From: a virus
Taxonomy: Duplodnaviria; Heunggongvirae; Uroviricota; Caudoviricetes
Length of the DNA stretch: 12,244 bases
Virus record (IMG/VR): IMGVR_UViG_2681813321_000010
Reading direction: 5' to 3' (one strand)
The notes beneath the pieces were generated by a model that worked only from the letters and a program-made list of their open reading frames with translations, did not search any database and had not been told where the DNA came from. Below, piece after piece: positions 1 to 12,244 of this stretch. The position numbers and the translations under genes are program-made. The first letter of the stretch is position 1. Every line of letters begins with the position of its first letter.

Positions 1-135
1 TGCCTGGTGCCTCCAGGTGACGTTAACCAGTTAACAATTAACGCCGGATACAGAGAATCCACCCATAACACTGTTTTTGGTTTTAACTGTTCCGCGTGCG
101 CTCAGCCGCATTCACCGCATCACAAAATTCACTTT

Positions 136-193
136 AAAAACGGCGGCAGAGCAGTCACGGAGTAAAACTGATACCGCCAAACGTCACCAGAAA
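136..193 (-). ncRNA. dicF: DicF small RNA (cell-division inhibitor sRNA) with intrinsic terminator
   Basis: Minus-strand sequence TTTCTGGTGACGTTTGGCGGTATCAGTTTTACTCCGTGACTGCTCTGCCGCCGTTTTT matches my recollection of E. coli DicF; GGCGG/CCGCC stem followed by a T-run; located downstream of ydfC as in Qin. Confidence 0.8.
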
Positions 194-533
194 ATTGATA
201 ACAGAGGGCGTTGCAGCGGGGTTGTCGCTTAAGCGTATGGTCAACCTGACAACCCGGTGTCCTCAACGGGGAAGGAATAACCCCGCCATACTTACCGCCG
301 CGCCATTTCGCGGAGTGCCACAACCGGAAGCGCACGGTCGACGAAAATTTAACGACAGGCTATCTATGAACCAGCTACCTCGCCGTGCGCTTTCGCGTTA
401 TGGTCTGACTTTTCATGGAAATATCCTTTCAGTAAACTGTCAGTGCCGGATGCTCACCCATGTCCGGCGCACGCACTCCACCTCACCCGTGGAGAACTCC
501 TTAATTACCAACCTTAGCTTCGTTGGTTAGCTA

Positions 534-752
534 TTAACGCGGGTATGTAATCATTCTGGCAATGCTTAATGCCGCTGCTTTTTCCAGCCTGGTGATATCC
601 TGCTCCAGAGCGGACAGATTTTCAGCCTGCTTAGCCCTGGCTTCATTGGCCCATTTCAGATCCTGCGCTGCATTAATTTTCTGGCGCATCCACTCATAAA
701 GTTCATCATCGGTATAGTCTGGCGAGATGATGACGGGTTCTCGTTTCTGCAT
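534..752 (-). CDS. ydfC: YdfC, 72-aa Qin-type prophage protein
   Basis: 72-aa ORF in the track; GAGG ribosome-binding site upstream of the ATG; size and position after ydfB match the dicB operon. Confidence 0.8.
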   Translation of the reverse strand: MQKREPVIISPDYTDDELYEWMRQKINAAQDLKWANEARAKQAENLSALEQDITRLEKAAALSIARMITYPR

Positions 753-781
753 ACTGATTCCTCGCGGTGCTGCTTCGCTTA

Positions 782-910
782 TCAGCCGTTAGATTTTGCC
801 GAGCTGGAAAGCGCCTGTTTAAACTCACTGAAGCTGAGAGCTTCTTCGCCTTCGGCAAGGCCTTCGAAGTATTCTTCGTAAGCCTTTTCCATGATTGTGT
901 CGAAATCCAT
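782..910 (-). CDS. ydfB: YdfB, 42-aa small protein (below the ORF-track size cutoff)
   Basis: Manual translation of the minus strand gives MDFDTIMEKAYEEYFEGLAEGEEALSFSEFKQALSSSAKSNG; its ATG overlaps the ydfA stop (TGATATG); 42 aa matches known YdfB length. Confidence 0.75.
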   Translation of the reverse strand: MDFDTIMEKAYEEYFEGLAEGEEALSFSEFKQALSSSAKSNG

Positions 911-911
911 A

Positions 912-1067
912 TCACTCACCTGAGTTTCTTTCCAGCCAGCGACGGGCACCATTTTCGGTTTTAAACGTTTTGCTTCTGGTATACGTCATCGCGGTAAACG
1001 TGCCGTCCTGGTTGGGAAACACGCCGTACACCAGAGATTCGTTGTTGCCAAGATCGATAGTATCCAT
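912..1067 (-). CDS. ydfA: YdfA, 51-aa small protein
   Basis: Internal ATG of the 69-aa track ORF with a GAGG ribosome-binding site gives MDTIDLGNNESLVYGVFPNQDGTFTAMTYTRSKTFKTENGARRWLERNSGE; 51 aa matches YdfA; first gene after dicA as in Qin. Confidence 0.8.
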   Translation of the reverse strand: MDTIDLGNNESLVYGVFPNQDGTFTAMTYTRSKTFKTENGARRWLERNSGE

Positions 1068-1147
1068 GCTGACCTCATTTCCCCTTAACGCTGGGGTAGC
1101 GGAACTGTTTGCTGAGAACACCGTGCGGTGTGTTGATGCAAATAAGA

Positions 1148-1200
1148 TTAGCCATGGCTAACATATAGGTCAAGTGATTTTGTATGTTATGGCTAACATG
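1148..1200. promoter_or_regulatory. Putative DicA operator pair in the dicA-ydfA intergenic region (dicB-operon promoter region)
   Basis: Perfect palindrome TTAGCCATGGCTAA (1148-1161) and ATGTTA-TGGC-TAACAT (1185-1200) share TTAG/CTAA half-sites with the dicA-dicC intergenic palindromes. Confidence 0.5.
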
Positions 1201-1233
1201 ATTGATGTGGTAAAAGATAACTCATTGATGATG

Positions 1234-1641
1234 TTATCTTTTATTTGTCCGCTGACGGGCTTTTAGTAATTCTTCAAAGAGTTTATTGAAGTTTTTTACT
1301 CGAGCTCGCATTTCGGCGAGCTGGGTATCCTGTTCTGATTCTGGCAGTGCATTAAACAGCTCAAGGAGCTCTAGTTCTTTGGGGGATAAGGCAACTGGCT
1401 TCTCAACAGGTGGTGTTGGTTGCTTGTCTTCATCGCCAAATAGAATCCATGTTGGTGAGCATTGCAATACTTTGCTGAGGGCAAAAAGGTTCTTCCCTGT
1501 AGGTTCACTATCATCCCGTTCCCATTGTGATACAGACACATGGGAGATTTTCAGGGCTTTAGCAAGAGACCTTTGGGTGTGTTTGAGGTTTTTCCGACGA
1601 TACCTAATGCGTTCGCCGATAGTTAAATTTTTTGTTTCCAT
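1234..1641 (-). CDS. dicA: DicA, HTH (Xre-family) repressor of the dicB operon; CI-like immunity repressor
   Basis: 135-aa product METKNLTIGERIRYRRKNLKHTQRSLAKALKISHVSVSQWE... matches my recollection of E. coli K-12 DicA; N-terminal HTH; divergent from dicC. Confidence 0.92.
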   Translation of the reverse strand: METKNLTIGERIRYRRKNLKHTQRSLAKALKISHVSVSQWERDDSEPTGKNLFALSKVLQCSPTWILFGDEDKQPTPPVEKPVALSPKELELLELFNALPESEQDTQLAEMRARVKNFNKLFEELLKARQRTNKR

Positions 1642-1643
1642 AG

Positions 1644-1708
1644 TTAGCTAATGCTAAATCGTATTGACTATGTTTTTGTTAACATCTATTTTGTTAGTTA
1701 TGACTAAC
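1644..1708. promoter_or_regulatory. dicA-dicC divergent control region: two operator palindromes and a candidate rightward promoter
   Basis: TTAGC-TAAT-GCTAA (1644-1657) abuts the dicA start codon; TTGACT (1664-1669), 17-bp spacer, TATTTT (1687-1692); GTTAGT-TATG-ACTAAC (1693-1708) just downstream of the -10. Confidence 0.55.
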
Positions 1709-1724
1709 AATAAAGGTGTTTTAA

Positions 1725-1955
1725 ATGCTTAAAACTGACGCTCTTTTGTATTTCGGTTCAAAAACAAAACTTGCACAAGCAGCAGGTATTCGTTTGGCTT
1801 CGCTTTATAGCTGGAAAGGGGATTTAGTTCCCGAAGGTCGCGCGATGCGTCTACAGGAGGCATCTGGCGGGGAGCTTCAGTATGATCCCAAAGTTTATGA
1901 TGAATATCGTAAGACGAAGCGGGCGGGGCGGTTGAACAATGAAAATCACTCCTGA
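1725..1955 (+). CDS. dicC: DicC, Cro-like regulator
   Basis: 76-aa product MLKTDALLYFGSKTKLAQAAGIRLASLYSWKGDLVPEGRAMRLQEASGGELQYDPKVYDEYRK... matches my recollection of DicC; divergent from dicA. Confidence 0.9.
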   Translation: MLKTDALLYFGSKTKLAQAAGIRLASLYSWKGDLVPEGRAMRLQEASGGELQYDPKVYDEYRKTKRAGRLNNENHS

Positions 1956-2460
1956 ACAGGCTCGTGAGGCTCTGGATGCCTGGATATGTCGACCAGGAAT
2001 GACACAGGAGCAGGCGACGATATTAATCACTGAAGCATTCTGGGCTTTGAAAGAGCGCCCGAACATCGATGTTCAGCGTGTCACAGATGAAGGTGGCGCG
2101 GTTGATCAGCGAGCGCTTGGCGTTAATCGAGTGAAGATATTCGAACGCTGGAAGGCTATCGACACCAGGGATAAGCGTGAAAAGTTCACGGCGCTAGTGC
2201 CTGCGATTATGGAGGCTATCCGGATTAGTGATTTCAGGTTGTATCGTGAGATCAGTGATGGAAAAAGTATTACGTACATGATCGCCGGGTTAAATAAAGA
2301 ATATGGCGATGTGGTGGAATCCGGACTGCTTTTTGCAGATCCTGCCGTTGTAGATCGTGAAACTGACGAACTTATAGAAAAAGCAATTGCTTTCAAGCTT
2401 GCGTATCGACAGCAATACCAACAAAAAGCTGGATGGAATTATGAGTCTTCTTTTTGCTGA
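1939..2460 (+). CDS. YdaT-like protein in the CII position (putative regulator)
   Basis: 173-aa ORF overlapping the dicC 3' end; segment VKIFERWKAIDTRDKREKFTALVPAIMEAI resembles the YdaT-family core as I recall it; family assignment is from memory only. Confidence 0.6.
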   Translation: MKITPEQAREALDAWICRPGMTQEQATILITEAFWALKERPNIDVQRVTDEGGAVDQRALGVNRVKIFERWKAIDTRDKREKFTALVPAIMEAIRISDFRLYREISDGKSITYMIAGLNKEYGDVVESGLLFADPAVVDRETDELIEKAIAFKLAYRQQYQQKAGWNYESSFC

Positions 2461-3406
2461 ACGCCCACTGGTTATAAACACGCAGCTGGCAATGAAAATT
2501 GGCTTAAACGAAGCCATTGTTTTGCAACAACTGCACTACTGGTTGAGAGATACCAACTCCGGCATGGAATGTGATGGTGTTCGCTGGATTTATAACACAA
2601 CGGAACAATGGCTGGAACAGTTCCCATTCTGGTCAGAGTCAACGTTAAAGCGCGCGTTTGCAAGTCTGAAAACGCTGGGGCTTTTGCGTTGTGAAAAGCT
2701 CAATAAATCAAAGCGCGATATGACCAATTTCTACACGATCAACTACGGGAGCGAGCTTTTAGATGGTGGCAAATTGAGCGAATCCATCGGTTTAAAATGC
2801 GCCGCTCCATCAGGTCAAAATGACACGATGGAAGAGGTCAAAATGAAACGCTCCATTGGTTCAAAACGACTCAATGTCATCGGGTCAAAATGGCCTGATG
2901 ATCTTACAGAGAATACAACAGAGATTACTACAGAGAATAAAAAGACTTCTCGTCCGGAAGCTTCGCAACCGGACCCGCAGACGGTTGAACAGGATTTTTT
3001 AACCCGACACCCTGACGCGGTTGTGTTCAGTGCGAAAAAACGCCAGTGGGGCAGCCAGGAAGATTTGGCGTGTGCGCAGTGGATCTGGGGGCGAATCGTG
3101 AGTCTTTACGAGCAGGCCGCCAGCGATGATGGCGAGATTTCGCGACCGAAAGAACCCAACTGGACCGCATGGGCCAACGACGTGCGCACAATGCGGATGC
3201 TGGATGGCAGAACTCACAGACAAATTTGTGAAATGTTTGGTCGGGTGCAGCGGGATCCATTCTGGGTAAAAAATATCATGAGTCCGTCAAAGCTTCGCGA
3301 AAAATGGGATGAACTGGTTATCCGCCTGGGGCGTTCGTCTGTACAGCGTTGTGTGAATCATATTTCTGAGCCGGATACCGAAATTCCGCCGGGCTTCAGG
3401 GGGTAA
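2441..3406 (+). CDS. Replication initiator, lambda O-like (N-terminal DNA-binding domain, TE-rich linker, C-terminal domain)
   Basis: Track ORF begins at TTG 2387; the ATG at 2441 overlaps the upstream stop (ATGAGTCTT...TGA) and is the likelier start; contains iterons plus an AT-rich tract inside the coding sequence, as lambda O does. Confidence 0.75.
   Translation: MSLLFAERPLVINTQLAMKIGLNEAIVLQQLHYWLRDTNSGMECDGVRWIYNTTEQWLEQFPFWSESTLKRAFASLKTLGLLRCEKLNKSKRDMTNFYTINYGSELLDGGKLSESIGLKCAAPSGQNDTMEEVKMKRSIGSKRLNVIGSKWPDDLTENTTEITTENKKTSRPEASQPDPQTVEQDFLTRHPDAVVFSAKKRQWGSQEDLACAQWIWGRIVSLYEQAASDDGEISRPKEPNWTAWANDVRTMRMLDGRTHRQICEMFGRVQRDPFWVKNIMSPSKLREKWDELVIRLGRSSVQRCVNHISEPDTEIPPGFRG
2783..2941 (+). 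repeat. Putative replication origin inside the O-like gene: five iterons followed by three 12-bp A-rich repeats
   Basis: Iterons of consensus about TCCATCGGGTCAAAATG starting at 2783, 2806, 2829, 2852, 2876 (23-24 bp period); then ACAGAGAATACA / ACAGAGATTACT / ACAGAGAATAAA at 2906-2941. Confidence 0.7.
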
Positions 3407-3446
3407 GTGTTAATTTCTGGTCATGAGGTAATTTTCAGGAGGGCTT

Positions 3447-3869
3447 GTGGCAAAAGTTTTTACACAAGAAGAGCGGGAAAAAATTAAAGGGCAGGTTGTT
3501 GAACTCGTACGCCGGAGTGGGCGTGAGACGTTACGGCAACTGGAAGTCAAGACAGGTGCGACAAGATATCTGATGAGCGTTCTCGCAAGAGAGCTGGTTG
3601 CCAGCGGCGATGTATACAACTCTGGTTACGGGTTATTCCCGTCTGAACAGGCGCGTAAGGACTGGCAAAATGCCCGTAAAAAGCTCTCAAGGGCAAAGCT
3701 GAAGGAACCATCTGCGGTTGATCCGGACCTTATCTGGTCATTACCTGACGGAGAAATACGTCGCTACGACAGGCGTCAGAACATAATCTGTCGCGAGTGC
3801 CGGAAGAGTGAAGTTATGCAGCGCATACTAGCATTCTATCAGGGAAATGCTCGATATTTATTGAAGTGA
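3447..3869 (+). CDS. Hypothetical 140-aa protein in the P position after the initiator (C-terminal CxxC)
   Basis: GTG start 4 nt after AGGAGG (3437-3442); the paralog at 7824 has ATG at the same relative position after AGGAGG; conserved between the two modules. Confidence 0.75.
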   Translation: MAKVFTQEEREKIKGQVVELVRRSGRETLRQLEVKTGATRYLMSVLARELVASGDVYNSGYGLFPSEQARKDWQNARKKLSRAKLKEPSAVDPDLIWSLPDGEIRRYDRRQNIICRECRKSEVMQRILAFYQGNARYLLK

Positions 3870-4121
3870 TGAGATTAAAGTTTATTAGTTCAGATATTGA
3901 TTGGCTCTTTTGTGGAGTAGGGTAGAGTTAGTGTGTTTGTCTGCTTGGTGCCAGCAGCGGATATGTTTAACAACAGAAAGCATTCAGCATGGTTAGTGGA
4001 TTTGCAAAGTGGATTAGGATTTGAGAAACTTTGATGAAGTTGTAAAGCTTGTTTCTATAAAAATAGAAATTTAACTAATAGTTAAACACACCTCCAGCTT
4101 CATTGAAAAGGATTATTAGCT

Positions 4122-4547
4122 ATGATTGATCCACTTATTAGAAACTTACAGAGTGATATTGCACTACTCCAGCTTTATATCGCGCAACGCAAACAGGCAG
4201 GCTTTCATGACATGGAAAGAATAATTGAGTCATTGACCATCTTTATGTTTCGCGCGCTGAAAATGGGTGAACTGGTAAACATGAATCAGATTAAAGTTAA
4301 TTTTCCCGCCATTGATTTAGCTGATAATAAAAACATGATAGCAGTTCAAGTTACTACGAATGCAAGTCCAGCAAAAATTAAAAAAACTATCGAATCTTTT
4401 GAGAAAATAAATGAAATAGGAGAGAGTCTGAAAGATAAATACTCTACTTTATATATTTTTGGTTTTAACTGTTCCGCGTGCGCTCAGCCGCATTCACCGC
4501 ATCACAAAATTCACTTTAAAAACGGCGGCAGAGCAGTCACGGAGTAA
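4122..4547 (+). pseudogene. Probable 5' fragment of an AT-rich cargo gene, truncated at the repeat junction (about 4456); the ORF tail runs into the dicF region
   Basis: Strongly AT-rich codons up to 4455, then the last ~30 codons lie in repeat sequence whose copy-1 equivalent (74-165) is preceded by unrelated DNA; ORF end overlaps dicF copy 2 on the opposite strand. Confidence 0.45.
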
Positions 4548-4575
4548 AACTGATACCGCCAAACGTCACCAGAAA
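4518..4575 (-). ncRNA. dicF: DicF small RNA, second copy
   Basis: Identical to 136-193 at offset 4382; in this copy the repeat ends about 60 bp downstream of the terminator, so no dicB can follow. Confidence 0.8.
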
Positions 4576-4915
4576 ATTGATAACAGAGGGCGTTGCAGCG
4601 GGGTTGTCGCTTAAGCGTATGGTCAACCTGACAACCCGGTGTCCTCAACGGGGAAGGAATAACCCCGCCATACTTACCGCCGCGCCATTTCGCGGAGTGC
4701 CACAACCGGAAGCGCACGGTCGACGAAAATTTAACGACAGGCTATCTATGAACCAGCTACCTCGCCGTGCGCTTTCGCGTTATGGTCTGACTTTTCATGG
4801 AAATATCCTTTCAGTAAACTGTCAGTGCCGGATGCTCACCCATGTCCGGCGCACGCACTCCACCTCACCCGTGGAGAACTCCTTAATTACCAACCTTAGC
4901 TTCGTTGGTTAGCTA

Positions 4916-5134
4916 TTAACGCGGGTATGTAATCATTCTGGCAATGCTTAATGCCGCTGCTTTTTCCAGCCTGGTGATATCCTGCTCCAGAGCGGACAGA
5001 TTTTCAGCCTGCTTAGCCCTGGCTTCATTGGCCCATTTCAGATCCTGCGCTGCATTAATTTTCTGGCGCATCCACTCATAAAGTTCATCATCGGTATAGT
5101 CTGGCGAGATGATGACGGGTTCTCGTTTCTGCAT
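4916..5134 (-). CDS. ydfC: YdfC, second copy
   Basis: 72-aa ORF identical in protein to 534-752. Confidence 0.8.
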   Translation of the reverse strand: MQKREPVIISPDYTDDELYEWMRQKINAAQDLKWANEARAKQAENLSALEQDITRLEKAAALSIARMITYPR

Positions 5135-5163
5135 ACTGATTCCTCGCGGTGCTGCTTCGCTTA

Positions 5164-5292
5164 TCAGCCGTTAGATTTTGCCGAGCTGGAAAGCGCCTGT
5201 TTAAACTCACTGAAGCTGAGAGCTTCTTCGCCTTCGGCAAGGCCTTCGAAGTATTCTTCGTAAGCCTTTTCCATGATTGTGTCGAAATCCAT
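5164..5292 (-). CDS. ydfB: YdfB, second copy (42 aa)
   Basis: DNA identical to 782-910 at offset 4382. Confidence 0.75.
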   Translation of the reverse strand: MDFDTIMEKAYEEYFEGLAEGEEALSFSEFKQALSSSAKSNG

Positions 5293-5293
5293 A

Positions 5294-5449
5294 TCACTCA
5301 CCTGAGTTTCTTTCCAGCCAGCGACGGGCACCATTTTCGGTTTTAAACGTTTTGCTTCTGGTATACGTCATCGCGGTAAACGTGCCGTCCTGGTTGGGAA
5401 ACACGCCGCATACCAGAGATTCGTTGTTGCCAAGATCGATAGTATTCAT
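5294..5449 (-). CDS. ydfA: YdfA, second copy (51 aa, two substitutions relative to copy 1)
   Basis: Same internal ATG as copy 1; product MNTIDLGNNESLVCGVFPNQ... Confidence 0.8.
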   Translation of the reverse strand: MNTIDLGNNESLVCGVFPNQDGTFTAMTYTRSKTFKTENGARRWLERNSGE

Positions 5450-5529
5450 GCTGACCTCATTTCCCCTTAACGCCGGGGTAGCGGAACTGTTTGCTGAGAA
5501 CACCGTGCGGTGTCTTGGTGGAGATTAAT

Positions 5530-5579
5530 TTAGAATAACCTAACAAATGTAGCAAGTATTTTTGTTAGATTGGTCTAAC
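5530..5579. promoter_or_regulatory. Putative operator pair downstream of the dicA-like gene (module 2 leftward-operon control region)
   Basis: TTAGAATAACCTAA (5530-5543) and palindrome GTTAGA-TTGG-TCTAAC (5564-5579); same TTAG/CTAA half-site logic as module 1. Confidence 0.45.
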
Positions 5580-5616
5580 AAAAAGAGTGAGGGAATCTAA
5601 GTATCTGAAAGGAGTG

Positions 5617-6024
5617 TTATTTTATTGATTTGTTTTTACGTGCTTTAAGCATTTCTTCGAAGAGTTTATTGAAATTCTCTACTCTTGCGCGCATTTCAGA
5701 CAGTAAGGCTTCCTGCTCGGAGGAGGGAAGAGCATCGAATAATTCGATCAATTCTTTGTGGCTGGGAGTTAACTCGGTTTCCACATGAAGTTCTTGTGCT
5801 GGCACTGGTGCCTTGTCTTCGTCACCAAACATTAGCCATGTAGGCGAGCACTTCAGCGCATCAGCTAAAGCAAATAACCGCTTCCCGACCGGTTGGGTTT
5901 CGTCTCTTTCCCATTGTGAAATTGTGACGTGAGCTACCCCAGCGAGGCGTGCAGCTTCTCGTTGTGTTAGGCGTAATTCTTTTCGTCGTGCCAGAACTCG
6001 CTGGCCTAGGGTTCTTGTATCCAT
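5617..6024 (-). CDS. DicA-like HTH repressor, divergent paralog (CI-like immunity repressor of module 2)
   Basis: 135 aa; C-terminal half nearly identical to DicA (...CSPTW..FGDEDK...EMRARV.NFNKLFEE.LKAR), N-terminal HTH diverged (QREAARLAGVAHVTISQWE). Confidence 0.85.
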   Translation of the reverse strand: MDTRTLGQRVLARRKELRLTQREAARLAGVAHVTISQWERDETQPVGKRLFALADALKCSPTWLMFGDEDKAPVPAQELHVETELTPSHKELIELFDALPSSEQEALLSEMRARVENFNKLFEEMLKARKNKSIK

Positions 6025-6030
6025 AGTTAG

Positions 6031-6090
6031 GTAATTCTAATTTTTCTTGACTTAGGTATCCCGCGCACATTACTGTTAGGAATATCTAAC
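6031..6090. promoter_or_regulatory. Module 2 divergent control region with operator palindromes
   Basis: TTAGGTAATTCTAA (6031-6044) abuts the dicA-like start; TTGACT at 6047-6052; GTTAGGAATATCTAAC (6075-6090) precedes the dicC-like gene. Confidence 0.45.
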
Positions 6091-6104
6091 AAGAGGGGGC
6101 TTTG

Positions 6105-6332
6105 ATGCTTAAAGTTGACGCAATTACTTTTTTTGGCAGCAAAACAAAACTTGCCAATGCCGCAGGAGTGAAACTGGCAAGTGTTGCTGCATGGGGGGAA
6201 CTGGTTCCTGAAGGTCGCGCGATGCGCCTGCAAGAGGCATCCGGCGGGGAACTTCAGTACGACCCCAAAGTTTATGACGAATATCGTAAGGCAAAGCGGG
6301 CGGGGCGGTTGAACAATGAAAATCACCCCTGA
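6105..6332 (+). CDS. DicC-like Cro-type regulator (paralog)
   Basis: Track ORF starts at TTG 6102; ATG at 6105 preceded by GAGGGGG; product about 85% identical to DicC by eye. Confidence 0.85.
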   Translation: MLKVDAITFFGSKTKLANAAGVKLASVAAWGELVPEGRAMRLQEASGGELQYDPKVYDEYRKAKRAGRLNNENHP

Positions 6333-6837
6333 ACAGGTTTGTGAGGCTCTGGATGCCTGGGTATGCCGACCAGGAATGACACAGGAGCAGGCGACGATAT
6401 TAATCACGGAAGCATTCTGGGCTCTGAAAGAACGCCCGAACATCGATGTTCAACGCGTCACGTTTAATGATGGCGAGGTTGATCAACGGGCGTTGGGCGT
6501 TAACCGGGTGAAGATATTCGAACGCTGGAAAGCTATCGACACCAGGGATAAGCGGGAAAAATTCACGGCGCTGATTCCGGCAATTATGGAGGCTATCCGG
6601 ATCAGCGATTTCAGGTTGTATTGTGAAATTACTGACGGAAAAAGCATTACGTACATGATCGCCGGGTTAAACAAAGAATATGGTGATGTGGTGGAGTCCG
6701 GGCTGCTTTTTGCGGATCCATCTGTTGTGGAACGTGAGACTGACGAGCTTATAGAAAAAGCTATTGCTTTCAAGCATGCGTATCGTCAGCAATACCAACA
6801 AAAAGCTGGATGGAATTATGAGCCTTCTTTTTGCTGA
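6316..6837 (+). CDS. YdaT-like protein in the CII position (paralog of 1939-2460)
   Basis: 173 aa, roughly 90% identical by eye to the module 1 copy; same overlap arrangement with neighbouring genes. Confidence 0.6.
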   Translation: MKITPEQVCEALDAWVCRPGMTQEQATILITEAFWALKERPNIDVQRVTFNDGEVDQRALGVNRVKIFERWKAIDTRDKREKFTALIPAIMEAIRISDFRLYCEITDGKSITYMIAGLNKEYGDVVESGLLFADPSVVERETDELIEKAIAFKHAYRQQYQQKAGWNYEPSFC

Positions 6838-7783
6838 ACGCCCACTGGTTATAAACACACAGCTTGCGATGAAGATTGGCTTAAATGAAGCCATTGTGTT
6901 GCAGCAGTTGCATTACTGGTTGAGAGATACCAGTTCCGGTATGGAATGTGACGGGGTTCGCTGGATTTATAACACAACAGAACAATGGCTGGAACAGTTC
7001 CCGTTCTGGTCAGAGTCAACGTTAAAACGCGCATTTGCAAGTCTGAAAACGCTGGGGCTTTTGCGTTGCGAAAAGCTCAACAAATCAAAGCGTGATATGA
7101 CTAATTTTTACACGATTAATTACGAGAGTGAGCTTTTAGATGGTGGCAAAGTGAGCGAATCCATCAGGTCAAAATGCGCCGCTCCATCGGGTCAAAATGA
7201 CACGATGGAAGAGGTCAAAATGGCACGCTCCATTGGTTCAAAACGACCCAATGTCATCGGGTCAAAATGGCCTGATGATCTTACAGAGAATACAACAGAG
7301 ATTACTACAGAGAATAAAAACACTTCTCGTCCGGAAGCTTCGCAACCGGACCCGCAGACGGCTGAACAGGATTTTTTAACCCGACACCCTGACGCGGTTG
7401 TGTTCAGTGCGAAAAAACGCCAGTGGGGAAGTCAGGAAGATTTGGCGTGCGCACAGTGGATCTGGGGACGAATCGTGAGTCTTTACGAGCAGGCTGCCAG
7501 CGATGATGGCGAGATCACGCGACCGAAAGAACCAAACTGGACCGCATGGGCCAATGACGTGCGCACAATGCGGATGCTGGATGGCAGAAGCCACAGACAA
7601 ATTTGCGAAATGTTTGGTCGGGTACAGCGAGATCCATTCTGGGTAAAAAACATCATGAGCCCGTCAAAGCTTCGCGAAAAATGGGACGACCTGGTCATCC
7701 GCCTGGGGCGTTCACCTGTACAGTGTTGTGTGAATCATATTTCTGAACCGGATACCGAAATTCCGCCTGGTTTCAGGGGATAA
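6818..7783 (+). CDS. Replication initiator, lambda O-like (paralog)
   Basis: ATG at 6818 overlaps the upstream stop exactly as in module 1; carries the equivalent iterons. Confidence 0.75.
   Translation: MSLLFAERPLVINTQLAMKIGLNEAIVLQQLHYWLRDTSSGMECDGVRWIYNTTEQWLEQFPFWSESTLKRAFASLKTLGLLRCEKLNKSKRDMTNFYTINYESELLDGGKVSESIRSKCAAPSGQNDTMEEVKMARSIGSKRPNVIGSKWPDDLTENTTEITTENKNTSRPEASQPDPQTAEQDFLTRHPDAVVFSAKKRQWGSQEDLACAQWIWGRIVSLYEQAASDDGEITRPKEPNWTAWANDVRTMRMLDGRSHRQICEMFGRVQRDPFWVKNIMSPSKLREKWDDLVIRLGRSPVQCCVNHISEPDTEIPPGFRG
7160..7318 (+). repeat. Putative replication origin of module 2 (five iterons plus A-rich 12-bp repeats)
   Basis: Iterons begin at 7160, 7183, 7206, 7229, 7253, the same positions as module 1 at offset 4377. 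Confidence 0.7.
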
Positions 7784-7823
7784 GTGGTGATTTTAGGGCA
7801 TAAAGTAATGTTCAGGAGGACTT

Positions 7824-8231
7824 ATGGCAAAAGTATTTACACAGGAAGAGCGGGAAAAAATTAAAGGACAGGTGGTGGAACTCGTGCGCCAGAGCGGTCG
7901 TGAGACGTTACGGCAACTGGAAGCTAAAACAGGTGCGACAAGATATCTGATGAGCGTTCTTGCCAGAGAGCTGGTTGCCAGTGGTGATGTATATCACTCT
8001 GGCTATGGGGTGTTCCCGTCAGAACGGGCTCGTAAGGACTGGCAAAACGCCCGCAAAAAACTCTCGAGGGCAAAGGTGAAGAAACCTGTTGTGGTTGATC
8101 CGGGCCTTATCTGGACATTACCCGACGGAGAAATACGCCGCTACGACAGGCGTATGAACATAATCTGTCGCGAGTGCCGGAAGAGCGAAGTTATGCAGCG
8201 TGTATTGGCGTTCTATCAGGGATATGCCTAG
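7824..8231 (+). CDS. Hypothetical 135-aa protein in the P position (paralog of 3447-3869)
   Basis: ATG 4 nt after AGGAGG; about 90% identical by eye to the module 1 copy. Confidence 0.75.
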   Translation: MAKVFTQEEREKIKGQVVELVRQSGRETLRQLEAKTGATRYLMSVLARELVASGDVYHSGYGVFPSERARKDWQNARKKLSRAKVKKPVVVDPGLIWTLPDGEIRRYDRRMNIICRECRKSEVMQRVLAFYQGYA

Positions 8232-8599
8232 AATTGTCACAGGTAATGAAATTAAAGAGTATTGGTTCGGATATGAATTGACATTTTCGCGGCACAGAGC
8301 TAAAAATAGCCTACTTGTTGGTTTTGTGTGAAAAGCAGACATTTTGAGGCTCAGGATTTGTTATCAAATAAGACCAATACTTATCTATATTAATACACAT
8401 TAAATACTGTGCAATACATTATTGCATTTTATTAGATAAGCGATATTTAGGGAAAAGAAAAGTCATAGAAAACAGGCCGCTATTTGTTGTTGGATTTTAT
8501 AGGCTATATCTAGATTATCTTGCCACTGCGGTCTCTGTTTACCTAACAGCTTGGGCTTCTTTGCATGCAAGTTTGTAATAACAAGAGTAATCAAACGGA

Positions 8600-9631
8600 A
8601 TGTCTATTAATCCTAAACTTAAGCGTATCGCGCGACGCTATCCAGCGTTATTCCAATATGAGTCCCCCTATATGGCAAGAAAATTAATAATATTCGGCAA
8701 CGGTCTCGGTATGGCTTTAGATCCTGCTCACTTCTCCTTAGACAGAGCGTTGGAAGAAATTTGGCATCGCCCCAATTTTTTAAAAGATATCCACAAGCAA
8801 CTTATCGAGCGTTGTCTTCAGCGGCAAGGTCCACCAGAAGGAGAACATGAGTTGGATACCCTTCACCAGGCTGTCACATATTGTAAAGCTCTTGCTCAAA
8901 TTGGAGAGGGGAACGTGCATTGGCTTACTGAAGATGGACTAAACTTCCCCAAAATTACCGCCACTTATATTCACAAAGTTGCAACCAGGTTGCATAATTA
9001 CGATAAAGGTTTGCCACAAAGATTCGAAAATGCGCTTGTGGAGTTTGTAAAGAACACACACTCACATATCGCGACATTAAACTATGACAAATTATTATAC
9101 AATTCATTCATAGATAATGATATATTCAACGGGTATGATGGGGTTTTAGTTGATGGGATGCTAAGCCACGGATTTTCCTCTGCAGCGCTCGAACGGAAAT
9201 ACAATCGTAGGTTTGGTTATTATTTGCACTTGCATGGTTCACCACTATTTATTAATCAGCATGAAAATGTTTTAAAACTTTCACGCTCACAACTTACTCT
9301 TGACATAGATGAACCTAGTGAGCATATAGTGTTAACTCATATAAAAAGAAAACCGTCAGTTATAGCAGCATCTAATGTTCTTTCTACGTACTGGGATTAT
9401 TTGCAGTTTGCATTATTTGAATCAGAAGAAATAATATTGTTTGGTTACTCTGGTCTCGATATTCACCTTAACCTGCTTATTCGACCTTACCTAACCTCTA
9501 AGCCTTTAAGAGTAATTGAGTGGAGCGGTGCTGGTGAACAAAACGCTCGTGAGATATATTGGAAAAACCAGTTGAGACGGGAAGTTACTGTAATTAGGTT
9601 GGATAACATCACTGATTTTATTGATTGGTAG
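8600..9631 (+). CDS. SIR2-like (SIR2_2-type) single-domain protein, candidate NAD-consuming defence or abortive-infection effector
   Basis: 343 aa, AT-rich codon usage; ordered motifs LIIFGNGLG (Rossmann-like), TLNYDKL (sirtuin-type N/D), YLHLHGS (His), ILFGYSGLD, in the same order as SIR2-like domains such as Thoeris ThsA; preceded by about 370 bp of AT-rich DNA. Confidence 0.6.
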   Translation: MSINPKLKRIARRYPALFQYESPYMARKLIIFGNGLGMALDPAHFSLDRALEEIWHRPNFLKDIHKQLIERCLQRQGPPEGEHELDTLHQAVTYCKALAQIGEGNVHWLTEDGLNFPKITATYIHKVATRLHNYDKGLPQRFENALVEFVKNTHSHIATLNYDKLLYNSFIDNDIFNGYDGVLVDGMLSHGFSSAALERKYNRRFGYYLHLHGSPLFINQHENVLKLSRSQLTLDIDEPSEHIVLTHIKRKPSVIAASNVLSTYWDYLQFALFESEEIILFGYSGLDIHLNLLIRPYLTSKPLRVIEWSGAGEQNAREIYWKNQLRREVTVIRLDNITDFIDW

Positions 9632-9701
9632 CGCAATGCGAAGTTAAAGAGGCAGCCTCATATTTATCAGAGCTGGTGTACGTCCAATACAGGAGGTTAT
9701 C

Positions 9702-9791
9702 GTGCTGGTTCTCAAATGCGCGCTGGCTATTGCGGCTGTAGTGGCAATTTATTGTCTTGCTATTGTTCTTATGGATCGCCTTTCTGATTGA
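9702..9791 (+). CDS. Candidate 29-aa hydrophobic single-helix peptide (VLVLKCALAIAAVVAIYCLAIVLMDRLSD)
   Basis: GTG start 5 nt after a perfect AGGAGG (9691-9696); uniformly hydrophobic core of about 20 residues; below the ORF-track size cutoff. Confidence 0.4.
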   Translation: MLVLKCALAIAAVVAIYCLAIVLMDRLSD

Positions 9792-10002
9792 TTTTATATT
9801 GGCGAGGTGACGGGAGTTAAGTAGAATTGCTGCGGGTGCTTGAGGCTGTCTGCCTCGGGCATGCCACCGTAAGGCAGACAGAGAAAAGCCCCAGTTAACA
9901 TTACGCGTCCTGCAAGACGCTTAACATTAATCTGAGGCCCAATCTATGCTTCACAAACGTAGGTTAGCCTCTTACGCGCCGAAAGGCAAGGAGAAGCAGG
10001 CT

Positions 10003-10158
10003 ATGAAGCAGCAAAAGGCGATGTTAATCGCCCTGATCGTCATCTGTTTAACCGTCATAGTGACGGCACTGGTAACGAGGAAAGACCTCTGCGAGGTACG
10101 AATCCGAACCGGCCAGACGGAGGTCGCTGTCTTCACAGCTTACGAACCTGAGGAGTAA
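10003..10158 (+). CDS. hokD: HokD (RelF), Hok/Gef-family type I membrane toxin
   Basis: MKQQKAMLIALIVICLTVIVTALVTRKDLCEVRIRTGQTEVAVFTAYEPEE matches my recollection of HokD and the Hok signature (TRK.LCE.R...G..EVA.F.AYE); the track ORF from 9946 is an in-frame upstream extension. Confidence 0.85.
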   Translation: MKQQKAMLIALIVICLTVIVTALVTRKDLCEVRIRTGQTEVAVFTAYEPEE

Positions 10159-10226
10159 GAGACCAGGCGGGGGAGAAATCCCTCGCCACCGCTGATGTGT
10201 CAGGCATCCTCAACGCACCCGCACTT

Positions 10227-10253
10227 AACCCGCTTCGGCGGGTTTTTGTTTTT
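10227..10253 (+). terminator. Intrinsic terminator after hokD
   Basis: CCCGC-TTCG-GCGGG stem-loop (10229-10242) followed by TTTTTGTTTTT. Confidence 0.8.
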
Positions 10254-10266
10254 ATTTTCAACGCAT

Positions 10267-10296
10267 TTGAAGTTCTGGACGGTGTCGGAATAGAAT
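10267..10296 (+). promoter_or_regulatory. Candidate sigma70 promoter for the 83-aa gene
   Basis: TTGAAG (10267-10272), 18-bp spacer, TAGAAT (10291-10296); lies just after the hokD terminator. Confidence 0.4.
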
Positions 10297-10374
10297 CAAA
10301 AATACTTAAGTAGCGCGCAGGGATAAGAGGGATGGTCCCTTAAAGGGGAGAGCTAATTATCCGGAAGGATTCTG

Positions 10375-10626
10375 ATGATGAACATCGAAGAACTGCGTAA
10401 AATTTTTTGTGAAGATGGCCTCTATGCTGTGTGCGTTGAAAATGGAAATATTGTTAGTCATTACCGCATTGTGTGTTTGCGAAAGAATGGGGCTGCGTTA
10501 ATTAATTTTGTGGATGGTCGAGTGACAGACGGATTTATCTTGCGCGAAGGTGAGTTTGTCACTTCATTACAGGCACTGAAAGAGATCGGAATAAAAGCTG
10601 GCTTTTCTGCTTTTTCAGAAGAATAA
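10375..10626 (+). CDS. 83-aa hypothetical prophage protein, possibly the Rem homolog
   Basis: GGAAGG 6 nt upstream of the ATG; same size as Rem (83 aa) and same position between hokD and the ydfU-like gene as in Qin; I cannot recall the Rem sequence to confirm. Confidence 0.65.
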   Translation: MMNIEELRKIFCEDGLYAVCVENGNIVSHYRIVCLRKNGAALINFVDGRVTDGFILREGEFVTSLQALKEIGIKAGFSAFSEE

Positions 10627-10692
10627 ACTCATCTACAATCTTGCGCGGGGCTGAACTCCCGCTGAGTAACACCGTGCCGCCGGAGGAAACCG

Positions 10693-10971
10693 ATGGCACG
10701 CAACGCAAAATATTACAATCATGATAATTCGACCGTTCTTGCCCACACGCACGAGCGGTATTCTCACGCATTTAAGTCAGACTGGTACCAGCATCCCCCA
10801 TGCACTGAAGAACAGGCCGAATGGCTCATTCAGTGTTACCGCAGGCGCGGATGCGAGGTTAAAAAAGCCCTTAGCCTCGACTACCGTCACTGGATAATCT
10901 CCGTCGGGCTTCCTTACTCCGAACGCCCACCGCGTCTGTCCCGCACATTCCAGCAACGCATCTGGAGGTAA
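10693..10971 (+). CDS. 92-aa hypothetical protein
   Basis: GGAGG 7 nt upstream of the ATG; stop immediately precedes the next gene's start. Confidence 0.6.
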   Translation: MARNAKYYNHDNSTVLAHTHERYSHAFKSDWYQHPPCTEEQAEWLIQCYRRRGCEVKKALSLDYRHWIISVGLPYSERPPRLSRTFQQRIWR

Positions 10972-10972
10972 C

Positions 10973-12022
10973 GTGCGGGTATTACTTCGACCTGTTCTGG
11001 TACCGGAACTCGGGCTGGTGGTCCTTAAGCCCGGTCGCGAATCACTGCCGGTTTTTCATTGCGGCAGGGTGCTGGTGGAGCCGGAACCGAAAAGCATGCG
11101 CGGTCTGCCGTCCGGAGTCGTCCCTGCCGTTCGCCAGCCGCTGGCGGAGGATAAATCATTACTGCCATTTTTCAGCGATGAGCGTGTGATTCGTGCTGCT
11201 GGCGGCGCTGGCGCACTGTCTGACTGGCTCCTGCGTCATGTCAAATCCTGCCAGTGGCCTCATGGTGACTACCATCACAGTGAAACCGTCATACATCGTT
11301 ATGGTACCGGCGCAATGGTGTTGTGCTGGCACTGCGACAACCAGCTGCGCGACCAGACCTCCGAATCACTCGGGCAACTTGCTCACCAAAACCTGTCTGC
11401 ATGGATGATTGACGTCATACGCCATGCAATGAATGGCTCGCAGGAACGGGAATTATCGCTGGCTGAATTATCCTGGTGGGCGATCCGCAATCAGGTGGCG
11501 GACGCGCTACCGGAAGCGGTATTACGTCGTTCGCTGGGGTTGCGTGCGGAAAAAATCCGCTCAATGTACCGTGAAAGCGACATCGTACCGGGAGAGCAGA
11601 CCGCCACCAGCATACTGAAACAGCGCACAAAAAATCTTGCGCCGCTGCCTCACGCCCACCAGCAACAGAACCCGCCACAGGAAAAGACGGTGGTCAGCAT
11701 TGCTGTTGATCCGGAGTCTCCGGAATCTTTAATGAAGCGACCTAAACGTCGCCGTTGGGTAAATGAGAAATATACGCGCTGGGTAAAGACACAGCCGTGT
11801 GCGTGTTGTGGTAAGCCAGCCGACGATCCCCATCACCTGATTGGTCATGGTCAGGGCGGAATAGGGACAAAAGCCCACGATATTTTCACGCTACCGTTGT
11901 GCCGGGAGCATCACAACGAACTTCATGCTGATCCGCTGGCATTTGAAGAAAAGCATGGTTCCCAGATTGATTTAATTTTTCGTTTTCTTGATCGCGCCTT
12001 TGCAACCGGCGTGCTCGGGTAA
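10973..12022 (+). CDS. DUF968-family prophage protein (YdfU-like) with a C-terminal HNH-like Cys/His motif
   Basis: 349 aa; GTG start after GGAGG; C-terminus CACCGKPADDPHHLIGHG...LPLCREHHNELHA resembles HNH/zinc-binding nuclease motifs; size and synteny match Qin ydfU. Confidence 0.7.
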   Translation: MRVLLRPVLVPELGLVVLKPGRESLPVFHCGRVLVEPEPKSMRGLPSGVVPAVRQPLAEDKSLLPFFSDERVIRAAGGAGALSDWLLRHVKSCQWPHGDYHHSETVIHRYGTGAMVLCWHCDNQLRDQTSESLGQLAHQNLSAWMIDVIRHAMNGSQERELSLAELSWWAIRNQVADALPEAVLRRSLGLRAEKIRSMYRESDIVPGEQTATSILKQRTKNLAPLPHAHQQQNPPQEKTVVSIAVDPESPESLMKRPKRRRWVNEKYTRWVKTQPCACCGKPADDPHHLIGHGQGGIGTKAHDIFTLPLCREHHNELHADPLAFEEKHGSQIDLIFRFLDRAFATGVLG

Positions 12023-12034
12023 AAGAGGTTACTG

Positions 12035-12244
12035 ATGCGTATAGAGTTTGTTTTGCCTTACCCGCCGACGGTGAACACCTACTGGCGACGTCGTGGCAGC
12101 ACATATTTTGTGTCAAAAGCCGGTGAGCGTTATCGCCGGGATGTGGCACTTATTGTTCGCCAGCAGCGGCTGAAATTAAACCTGTCCGGAAGGCTGGCGA
12201 TAAAGATTATTGCAGAGCCACCGGATAAGCGCCGCCGCGACCTG
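12035..12244 (+). CDS. rusA: RusA-family Holliday-junction resolvase, 5' partial (runs off the window end)
   Basis: MRIEFVLPYPPTVNTYWRRRG...YRRDVALIV...IKIIAEPPDKRRRDL matches the RusA N-terminal pattern (P..N.Y....G......YR..VA.I......I.I....PD.RRRDLDN); AGAGG ribosome-binding site. Confidence 0.8.
   Translation, partial: MRIEFVLPYPPTVNTYWRRRGSTYFVSKAGERYRRDVALIVRQQRLKLNLSGRLAIKIIAEPPDKRRRDL

Follow-up and report, generated by a model that had tools for sequence, protein, structure and literature searches.

Two identical DicF genes, one of them without dicB, in an apparent mosaic of two Qin-like prophages

The two DicF genes described in this paper are real, identical to each other, and ordinary in sequence. 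They lie in a stretch of 12,244 nucleotides (which we call the window, meaning that whole stretch at its full length) from a virus of the class Caudoviricetes, IMG/VR record IMGVR_UViG_2681813321_000010. Judged by its sequence, the window is a mosaic—in the order Y / X / Y—of two Qin-like prophages and not a simple duplication, and we think it probable that the two genes have come together from the early regions of X and Y, joined by a template switch or by recombination equivalent to it. DicF and DicB are normally cotranscribed, and both inhibit cell division. How, then, might a dicF gene come to stand without its dicB, and what would such a gene still be able to do?

Results

The identity of the two genes is the simplest part of the story. 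Searched in full against Rfam with gathering thresholds applied, the window gave three hits: DicF twice and sok once (9834-10008). The DicF family, RF00039, matches the minus strand at 192..141 and at 4574..4523, in each case with 72.5 bits (E = 9.2e-15, against a gathering score of 48) and with model positions 1-52 of 52 covered; between the two copies, there is no difference, and the initial annotation, which had called two identical copies of dicF, was right on this point. We take the gene ends as the Rfam span plus the extra 5' U of the K-12 annotation, which gives two genes of 53 nt on the minus strand, copy 1 at 141..193 (terminator U-tract, 136-140) and copy 2 at 4523..4575 (U-tract, 4518-4522); the intervals 136-193 and 4518-4575 that had been reported earlier are these genes plus the five-U terminator tail. 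K-12 dicF is identical to each window copy at 52/53 positions, the sole change being the last, unpaired base (G for C), and the single-stranded 5' part and the loop that serve in target pairing are the same as those of K-12 DicF in both copies. Both the Rfam alignment and the folds show the 3' stem, GGCGGUA...UGCCGCC followed by UUUUU; a generic terminator scan left it uncalled because the loop limit of that scan is 8 nt. As for the third hit, sok (RF01794, 116 bits at 9834-10008) is part of a hok/sok type I toxin-antitoxin locus at 9834-10158 on the plus strand; hokD is annotated in an identical relative, and its ORF ends at 10158.

When the window is compared with itself, the two genes turn out to lie in a direct repeat with a period of 4,382 bp (about 4,380). 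The repeat unit is 1,062 bp long, and its left (74..1135) and right (4456..5517) instances are 99.5% identical, with 5 mismatches that all fall at 1027-1132. Each holds dicF, ydfC (534-752 and 4916-5134), ydfB (782-910 and 5164-5292), and ydfA (912-1067 and 5294-5449); the three ydf names are those of the RefSeq annotation of identical DNA, and Pfam assigns ydfA to DUF1391. A second repeated block (1818-3897 vs. 6195-8274) is 90% identical, and the blocks that intervene between the two repeats (1136-1817 vs. 5518-6194) are essentially unrelated DNA, with a match limited to a 60-nt patch. Both units have a YdaT_toxin-family gene at the cII position (1939-2460 and 6316-6837, plus strand), followed at the replication-initiator position by a 339-aa protein with no Pfam match.

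Where did such a repeat come from? Among 5,426 complete Escherichia coli genomes, the best match was that of the O111:H2 strain 12A, and its longest matching span (7,862 bp) is one unit. Strain 12A holds two separate complete Qin-like lambdoid prophages, about 1.2 Mb apart, which we call X and Y. Prophage X adjoins tRNA-Ser/mtfA and carries a K-12-type dicA and dicC followed by SMEK-domain and methyltransferase genes; prophage Y adjoins yccA and carries an HTH repressor, a SIR2-family gene, hokD, rem, and a DUF968 gene; and in both, ydfA, ydfB, and ydfC lie upstream of the dicF position and dicB lies downstream. Compared base by base with strain 12A, window positions 1-1026 are Y with zero mismatches, positions 1003-4466 are X with one mismatch (at 1710), and positions 4456-12244 are Y once more, with zero mismatches over 7,789 bp. 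FDAARGOS_1059 and several further genomes match the X-type segment at 100%. The initial annotation had missed this mosaic origin; in related strains, each of the two prophages comes complete with dicF, dicB, and a repressor of its own that governs them.

Two features of X and Y are recorded here for their own sake. At position 1710, the window departs from prophage X of strain 12A by one base (A/G), directly beside an OR-type palindrome, TGTTAGTTATGACTAACA, between dicA and dicC; FDAARGOS_1059 and others carry the allele of the window. Between the DUF977 gene and hokD (window 8600-9631, plus strand; L002 9273-11080), the gene content varies, with a SIR2-like gene in Y and SMEK-domain and class I methyltransferase genes in X, and this slot looks like a prophage hot spot for defense-type cargo.

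The two passages between Y-type and X-type sequence are of different kinds. One is a homologous crossover from Y to X inside ydfA, at 1003..1026, bounded by the last X mismatch (1002) and the first Y mismatch (1027). The other is an illegitimate junction at 4456..4466, an 11-bp microhomology, TTTTTGGTTTT, common to the SMEK gene of X and the dicF-dicB spacer of Y. The junction has left a truncated SMEK gene (4122..4547, plus strand; Pfam SMEK_N, 1.1e-22) in place of the intact 299-codon gene of prophage X, an ORF made of about 111 native codons and about 30 more that are read antisense to the region of dicF copy 2. Having crossed the junction, this ORF comes to its stop within DicF copy 2, which is on the other strand; an active SMEK promoter would give a transcript antisense to that copy.

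Has anyone else seen this junction? No complete E. coli genome covers both of its sides (megablast with 3850-4650; n = 5,426), and the exact junction 38-mer had no match in IMG/VR viral contigs, GTDB representative genomes, or JGI metagenomes. The whole window, searched against the E. coli genomes and 50,697 phage records, found no record with both immunity regions in tandem, and the fused SMEK protein was unmatched in an exact-protein/gene-position index. Since the junction is in none of the collections searched, it is either a recent private rearrangement or an artifact; a junction that is unique, between parts that are 100% identical to prophages of one lineage, fits a very recent event and a chimera alike. 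Three of the phage records (LC567818, LC567820, and LC567824, about 90 kb each and named as Stx2a-converting phage) have two matching places and include a second phage, PPompW. These are whole prophages integrated in tandem, a doubling different from that of the window.

The setting of copy 1 is familiar. The minus-strand order is dicA, PL, ydfA, ydfB, ydfC, a structured spacer of 340 nt, DicF, and the dicF-dicB spacer. The repressor gene (1234..1641, minus strand; Pfam HTH_3) derives from X and is of the K-12 type, its product being identical to K-12 DicA at 134/135 residues, and dicBp and the DicA operators lie directly downstream of it: a PL-type promoter (TTGACC-17 nt-TAATCT; 1145..1173, minus strand) that aligns with K-12 dicBp with few changes and, in the sequence, operator-like palindromes at 1148-1161 and 1185-1198. 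Past DicF, the window holds the first 140 nt (1..140, minus strand) of a dicF-dicB spacer of 174 nt (about 175), colinear with K-12 Qin, X, and Y. That dicB lies just outside the window beside this copy, as had been suggested, is supported: the spacer is conserved to the very edge, and in the 100%-identical Y sequence dicB follows, with its ATG 35 nt beyond window base 1 and its own GAGGA 8 nt upstream. The GGAGG at 10-14 that had been put forward as the dicB Shine-Dalgarno sequence had to be rejected as its ribosome-binding site, lying as it does about 45 nt upstream of that ATG in the Y sequence.

Copy 2 retains a putative promoter, ydfABC, the processing region, and the terminator, all in the same layout as copy 1. 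Its second DicA-like repressor (5617..6024, minus strand; Pfam HTH_3) derives from Y and is 58% identical to the X repressor. A putative PL-type promoter (TTGCTA-17 nt-TAAATT; 5527..5555, minus strand) would be the positional homologue of dicBp with diverged operators, and operator-like palindromes appear in the sequence at 5530-5543 and 5562-5581. (Neither PL promoter was called by a generic promoter scan at its threshold, which we attribute to the limits of its consensus rule and not to absence.) After the copy, the spacer is kept for 67 nt, and then comes the antisense SMEK fragment. That is, where a complete Qin-type dicBF operon has dicB after the spacer, here the spacer breaks off at 67 nt. 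A search of the whole window found no DicB homologue, the best tblastn match having E = 0.35 and lying away from copy 2, and the minus strand in 3800-4525, after the copy, has no ORF >32 aa, only ORFs of 25-32 aa without ribosome-binding sites; on these two grounds, a dicB analogue after copy 2 was rejected. The initial annotation had held that copy 2 ends at the boundary of the repeat and is not followed by dicB. The second half of that statement stands, but the first does not, because a further 67 nt of repeat, down to 4456, follow the 3' end of DicF.

Each copy, as had also been proposed, stands under a different repressor; each also lies downstream of a PL-type promoter of its own, a putative one in the case of copy 2. 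The differences between the X and Y repressors are concentrated in the HTH region and include recognition-helix residues, and over the C-terminal 45 or so residues, the two proteins resemble each other much more closely than in the DNA-binding helices. Their operators differ in parallel in the inner bases, with TTAG followed by a pyrimidine in the X sites and by a purine in the Y sites; the outer half-sites, TGTTAG/CTAACA, occur in both. In K-12, dicBp is repressed by DicA, and Rem derepresses it 165-fold by antagonizing DicA (PMC10448788). The window has a gene for this DicA antirepressor (rem; 10375..10626, plus strand), 95% identical to K-12 Rem, and the mosaic unites in one element what strain 12A keeps apart: rem on Y and the K-12-type dicA on X. 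The two repressors may answer to the same antirepressor. A change in regulatory logic is, thus, unproven because Rem may act on both repressors, and if it does, then the copies would be co-induced, and only the dose would change.

What RNAs might the two copies make? The K-12 operon is transcribed from dicBp and from no other promoter, giving two transcripts: one of 1,146 nt (ydfABC-dicF) that ends at DicF and one of 1,608 nt that extends across dicB and ydfD. Two nucleases set the 5' ends, RNase III that of a 190-nt precursor and RNase E that of the 53-nt DicF (PMC10448788). At the 3' side, Rho-independent termination accounts for the end of the 53-nt form, and RNase III gives rise to a form of 72 nt (PMC5069750). 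The sequence from upstream of DicF through the terminator is identical in the two copies (the mismatches of the repeat all lie at 1027-1132), and in a fold from ydfC to dicB, there is a long helix about 137 nt upstream of DicF that fits the 190-nt cut.

Downstream of DicF, the copies part. A long-range duplex of 24 bp is predicted between GUUUUUAAAGUGAAUUUUGUGAUG, immediately past DicF, and CAUCACAAAAUUCAUUGUUGAGGAC, within which the dicB Shine-Dalgarno sequence lies. The proximal arm is at 118..141 (minus strand) for copy 1, with its partner in the dicB leader outside the window, and at 4500..4523 (minus strand) for copy 2, where the partner is missing; the motif of the distal arm is absent from the whole window. 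The Y-sequence fold with the duplex has z = -5.07, and the duplex persists in a fold of 591 nt; the fold of the copy 2 context has z = 0.05. The predicted duplex (118-141, minus strand, with L001 5973-5997, minus strand) buries the dicB Shine-Dalgarno sequence and is invariant in K-12, X, and Y. By this structural prediction, the duplex could couple RNase III cleavage to dicB translation. It is also the likely RNase III site for the 72-nt form, a suggestion drawn only from the published length of that species, since a 72-nt 3' end (53 + 19) falls inside the proximal arm (PMC5069750). Copy 2 should lack the 72-nt form because its proximal arm has no partner in the window; derepression of PL-Y would let it make the 190- and 53-nt species, and transcripts that read through its terminator would run antisense into the X replication genes.

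Finally, dicF in several copies is anything but rare. The 96-nt dicF region occurs at 6,698 places in 3,973 of the 5,426 complete E. coli genomes (a collection of all pathotypes), with 1-7 places per positive genome; dicB occurs at 7,044 places (a total, not a count of loci where it is linked to dicF). The dicF-ydfC region (window 1-700) matches 60 phage records, Stx2 phages among them. Several dicF copies under different prophage repressors are common and published, and so are multicopy dicF and partial dicBF loci in E. coli (PMC5069750; PMC7873438). The significance that had been attached to two copies under two repressors was, therefore, overstated: this is the ordinary state, and in the parent-like strains, X and Y already provide it. 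Particular to this sequence are only two things, namely two units 4.4 kb apart in one early region and one unit without dicB.

Discussion

How might the window have arisen? We propose that a strain carried two coresident Qin-like prophages, X with the K-12-type DicA/DicC immunity and Y with a second immunity, and that their early regions were joined. On the minus strand, the early-left operon of Y (PL-Y, ydfA, ydfB, ydfC, and dicF) would stop at the junction, 67 nt past DicF. Past that point would come X sequence—the truncated SMEK gene, the X replication genes, dicC, dicA, and PL-X—and then a return to Y by homologous crossover in ydfA, on through ydfB, ydfC, and dicF to the dicB that should lie outside the window. 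A replication template switch (microhomology-mediated break-induced replication), or an equivalent combination of illegitimate and homologous recombination, would give this product.

The obvious objection is that nothing of the kind happened in a cell and that a chimeric molecule or a misjoin put together X and Y from one strain, each DicF really belonging to its own complete dicBF operon. We consider this unlikely but take it seriously. Every segment is identical, or identical but for one base, to prophages that sit 1.2 Mb apart in strain 12A; one of the switch points lies in a 97%-identical repeat, just where assemblers do switch; the junction was found nowhere else in the searched collections; and amplification chimeras are possible in any case. 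The second junction, however, shares only 11 bp, an overlap far below those (or the k-mers) that assemblers use, too short for an assembler to join and typical of biological template switching, and 11 shared bases are not what one would expect of arbitrary concatenation. The product, moreover, is colinear: one homologous switch and one microhomology switch in a single orientation are what a single event of replicative template switching would give. For these reasons, we favor a real event, and with fair assurance. A direct repeat with a 4,382-bp period, near-identical in its left part and 90% identical in its right part, also speaks for another history, in which a single prophage's immunity region was simply duplicated in tandem not long ago and then diverged or underwent gene conversion, but we give this reading almost no credence and have rejected it. 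The repressor/operator block is too different for it (58% protein identity and, in the DNA, the 60-nt patch alone), and the units match two different, separately integrated prophages at 100%. Tandem integration of two whole prophages was rejected too, with the joins lying inside early regions and not at attachment sites, and the halves matching different prophages.

Suppose, then, that the join took place in nature. Did it change anything but the amount of DicF? It may not have; both PL promoters could be switched by the same signal, either through Rem acting on both repressors or through cross-binding, and the only effect would then be one extra dose of DicF, added to that from the other prophages of the strain, under an unchanged logic. 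We judge this a minority possibility, although a good deal less far-fetched than a duplication and rather easier to entertain than an artifact. It draws on the closeness of the window's Rem to that of K-12, on the likeness of the C-terminal parts of the repressors, on the outer half-sites common to the two operator sets, on Gifsy-type antirepressors that are reported, in work as it is cited in PMC10448788, to act across prophages, and on the several copies already present in most dicF-positive genomes of prophage-rich lineages. Set against it are the coexistence of X and Y in the same strains, as is usually seen with heteroimmune phages, and the systematic differences in the inner operator bases and the recognition-helix residues.

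If the real join that we favor is granted, each copy would have a new address. Copy 1 would now sit in a complete dicBF operon, behind a K-12-type dicBp that should be DicA-repressed and Rem-inducible; the dicB of the Y side would have moved to the control of DicA-X, and PL-Y would be left with only ydfABC and dicF. Copy 2 would belong to that shortened ydfABC-dicF operon, with PL-Y under the Y repressor. It should be able to yield the 53-nt DicF, much as the 1,146-nt ydfABC-dicF transcript does in K-12, because it keeps its own intrinsic terminator and the upstream RNase III/RNase E region; it should not be able to yield DicB. The mature DicF of either copy would presumably act as it does in K-12, pairing with the ftsZ mRNA and others in an Hfq-dependent manner. 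One can go further and imagine that the template switch made a prophage with two immunity regions in which the stand-alone ydfABC-dicF unit supplies DicF, without the more toxic DicB, at the command of the second repressor; that both dicB-linked operons answer to the K-12-type DicA and to Rem; and that the SMEK transcript (4122-4547, plus strand) is an antisense RNA against DicF that could titrate away the product of every copy. This picture, taken as a whole, we regard as improbable—more so than the artifact.

What would all of this mean? A real join would amount to a natural experiment in which DicF has been parted from DicB, and two immunity modules in one prophage would mean that full induction needs both repressors to be lifted. 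The reach is small: the DicF RNA is the usual one, E. coli is already known to have extra dicF copies and partial dicBF loci, and the arrangement occurs in this one sequence only. The value of the check is that the repeat has been shown to be a mosaic of two known prophages and that the junction has been flagged for verification at the level of reads.

The closest known system is the dicBF operon of K-12 Qin (dicA/dicC, dicBp, ydfABC, dicF, dicB, and ydfD), whose gene order and spacing are repeated here. The likeness extends to DicF (52/53), the colinear dicF-dicB spacer, the near-identical promoter region of copy 1, DicA (134/135), and the place of rem and hokD downstream of the replication genes. 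Unlike Qin, the window has two ydfABC-dicF units in one element, the second of them under a 58%-identical repressor and without dicB, ydfD, or the distal arm of the duplex, and it has the replication genes that are deleted in Qin. Enterohemorrhagic E. coli (EHEC) resembles the window in having several DicF genes per genome, each in a lambdoid early-left operon with its own immunity region, and in having partial dicBF loci, but the EHEC copies are on separately integrated prophages, whereas here, because of the illegitimate join, they are 4.4 kb apart in one early region. As to the repressors, they are like those of the Gifsy-type systems with short repressors (GfoR/GfoA; DicA/Rem): both are of 135 aa with an N-terminal HTH and no peptidase domain (a Pfam search of the two matched only HTH models), and a Rem homologue is encoded in the same element, just as in those systems.
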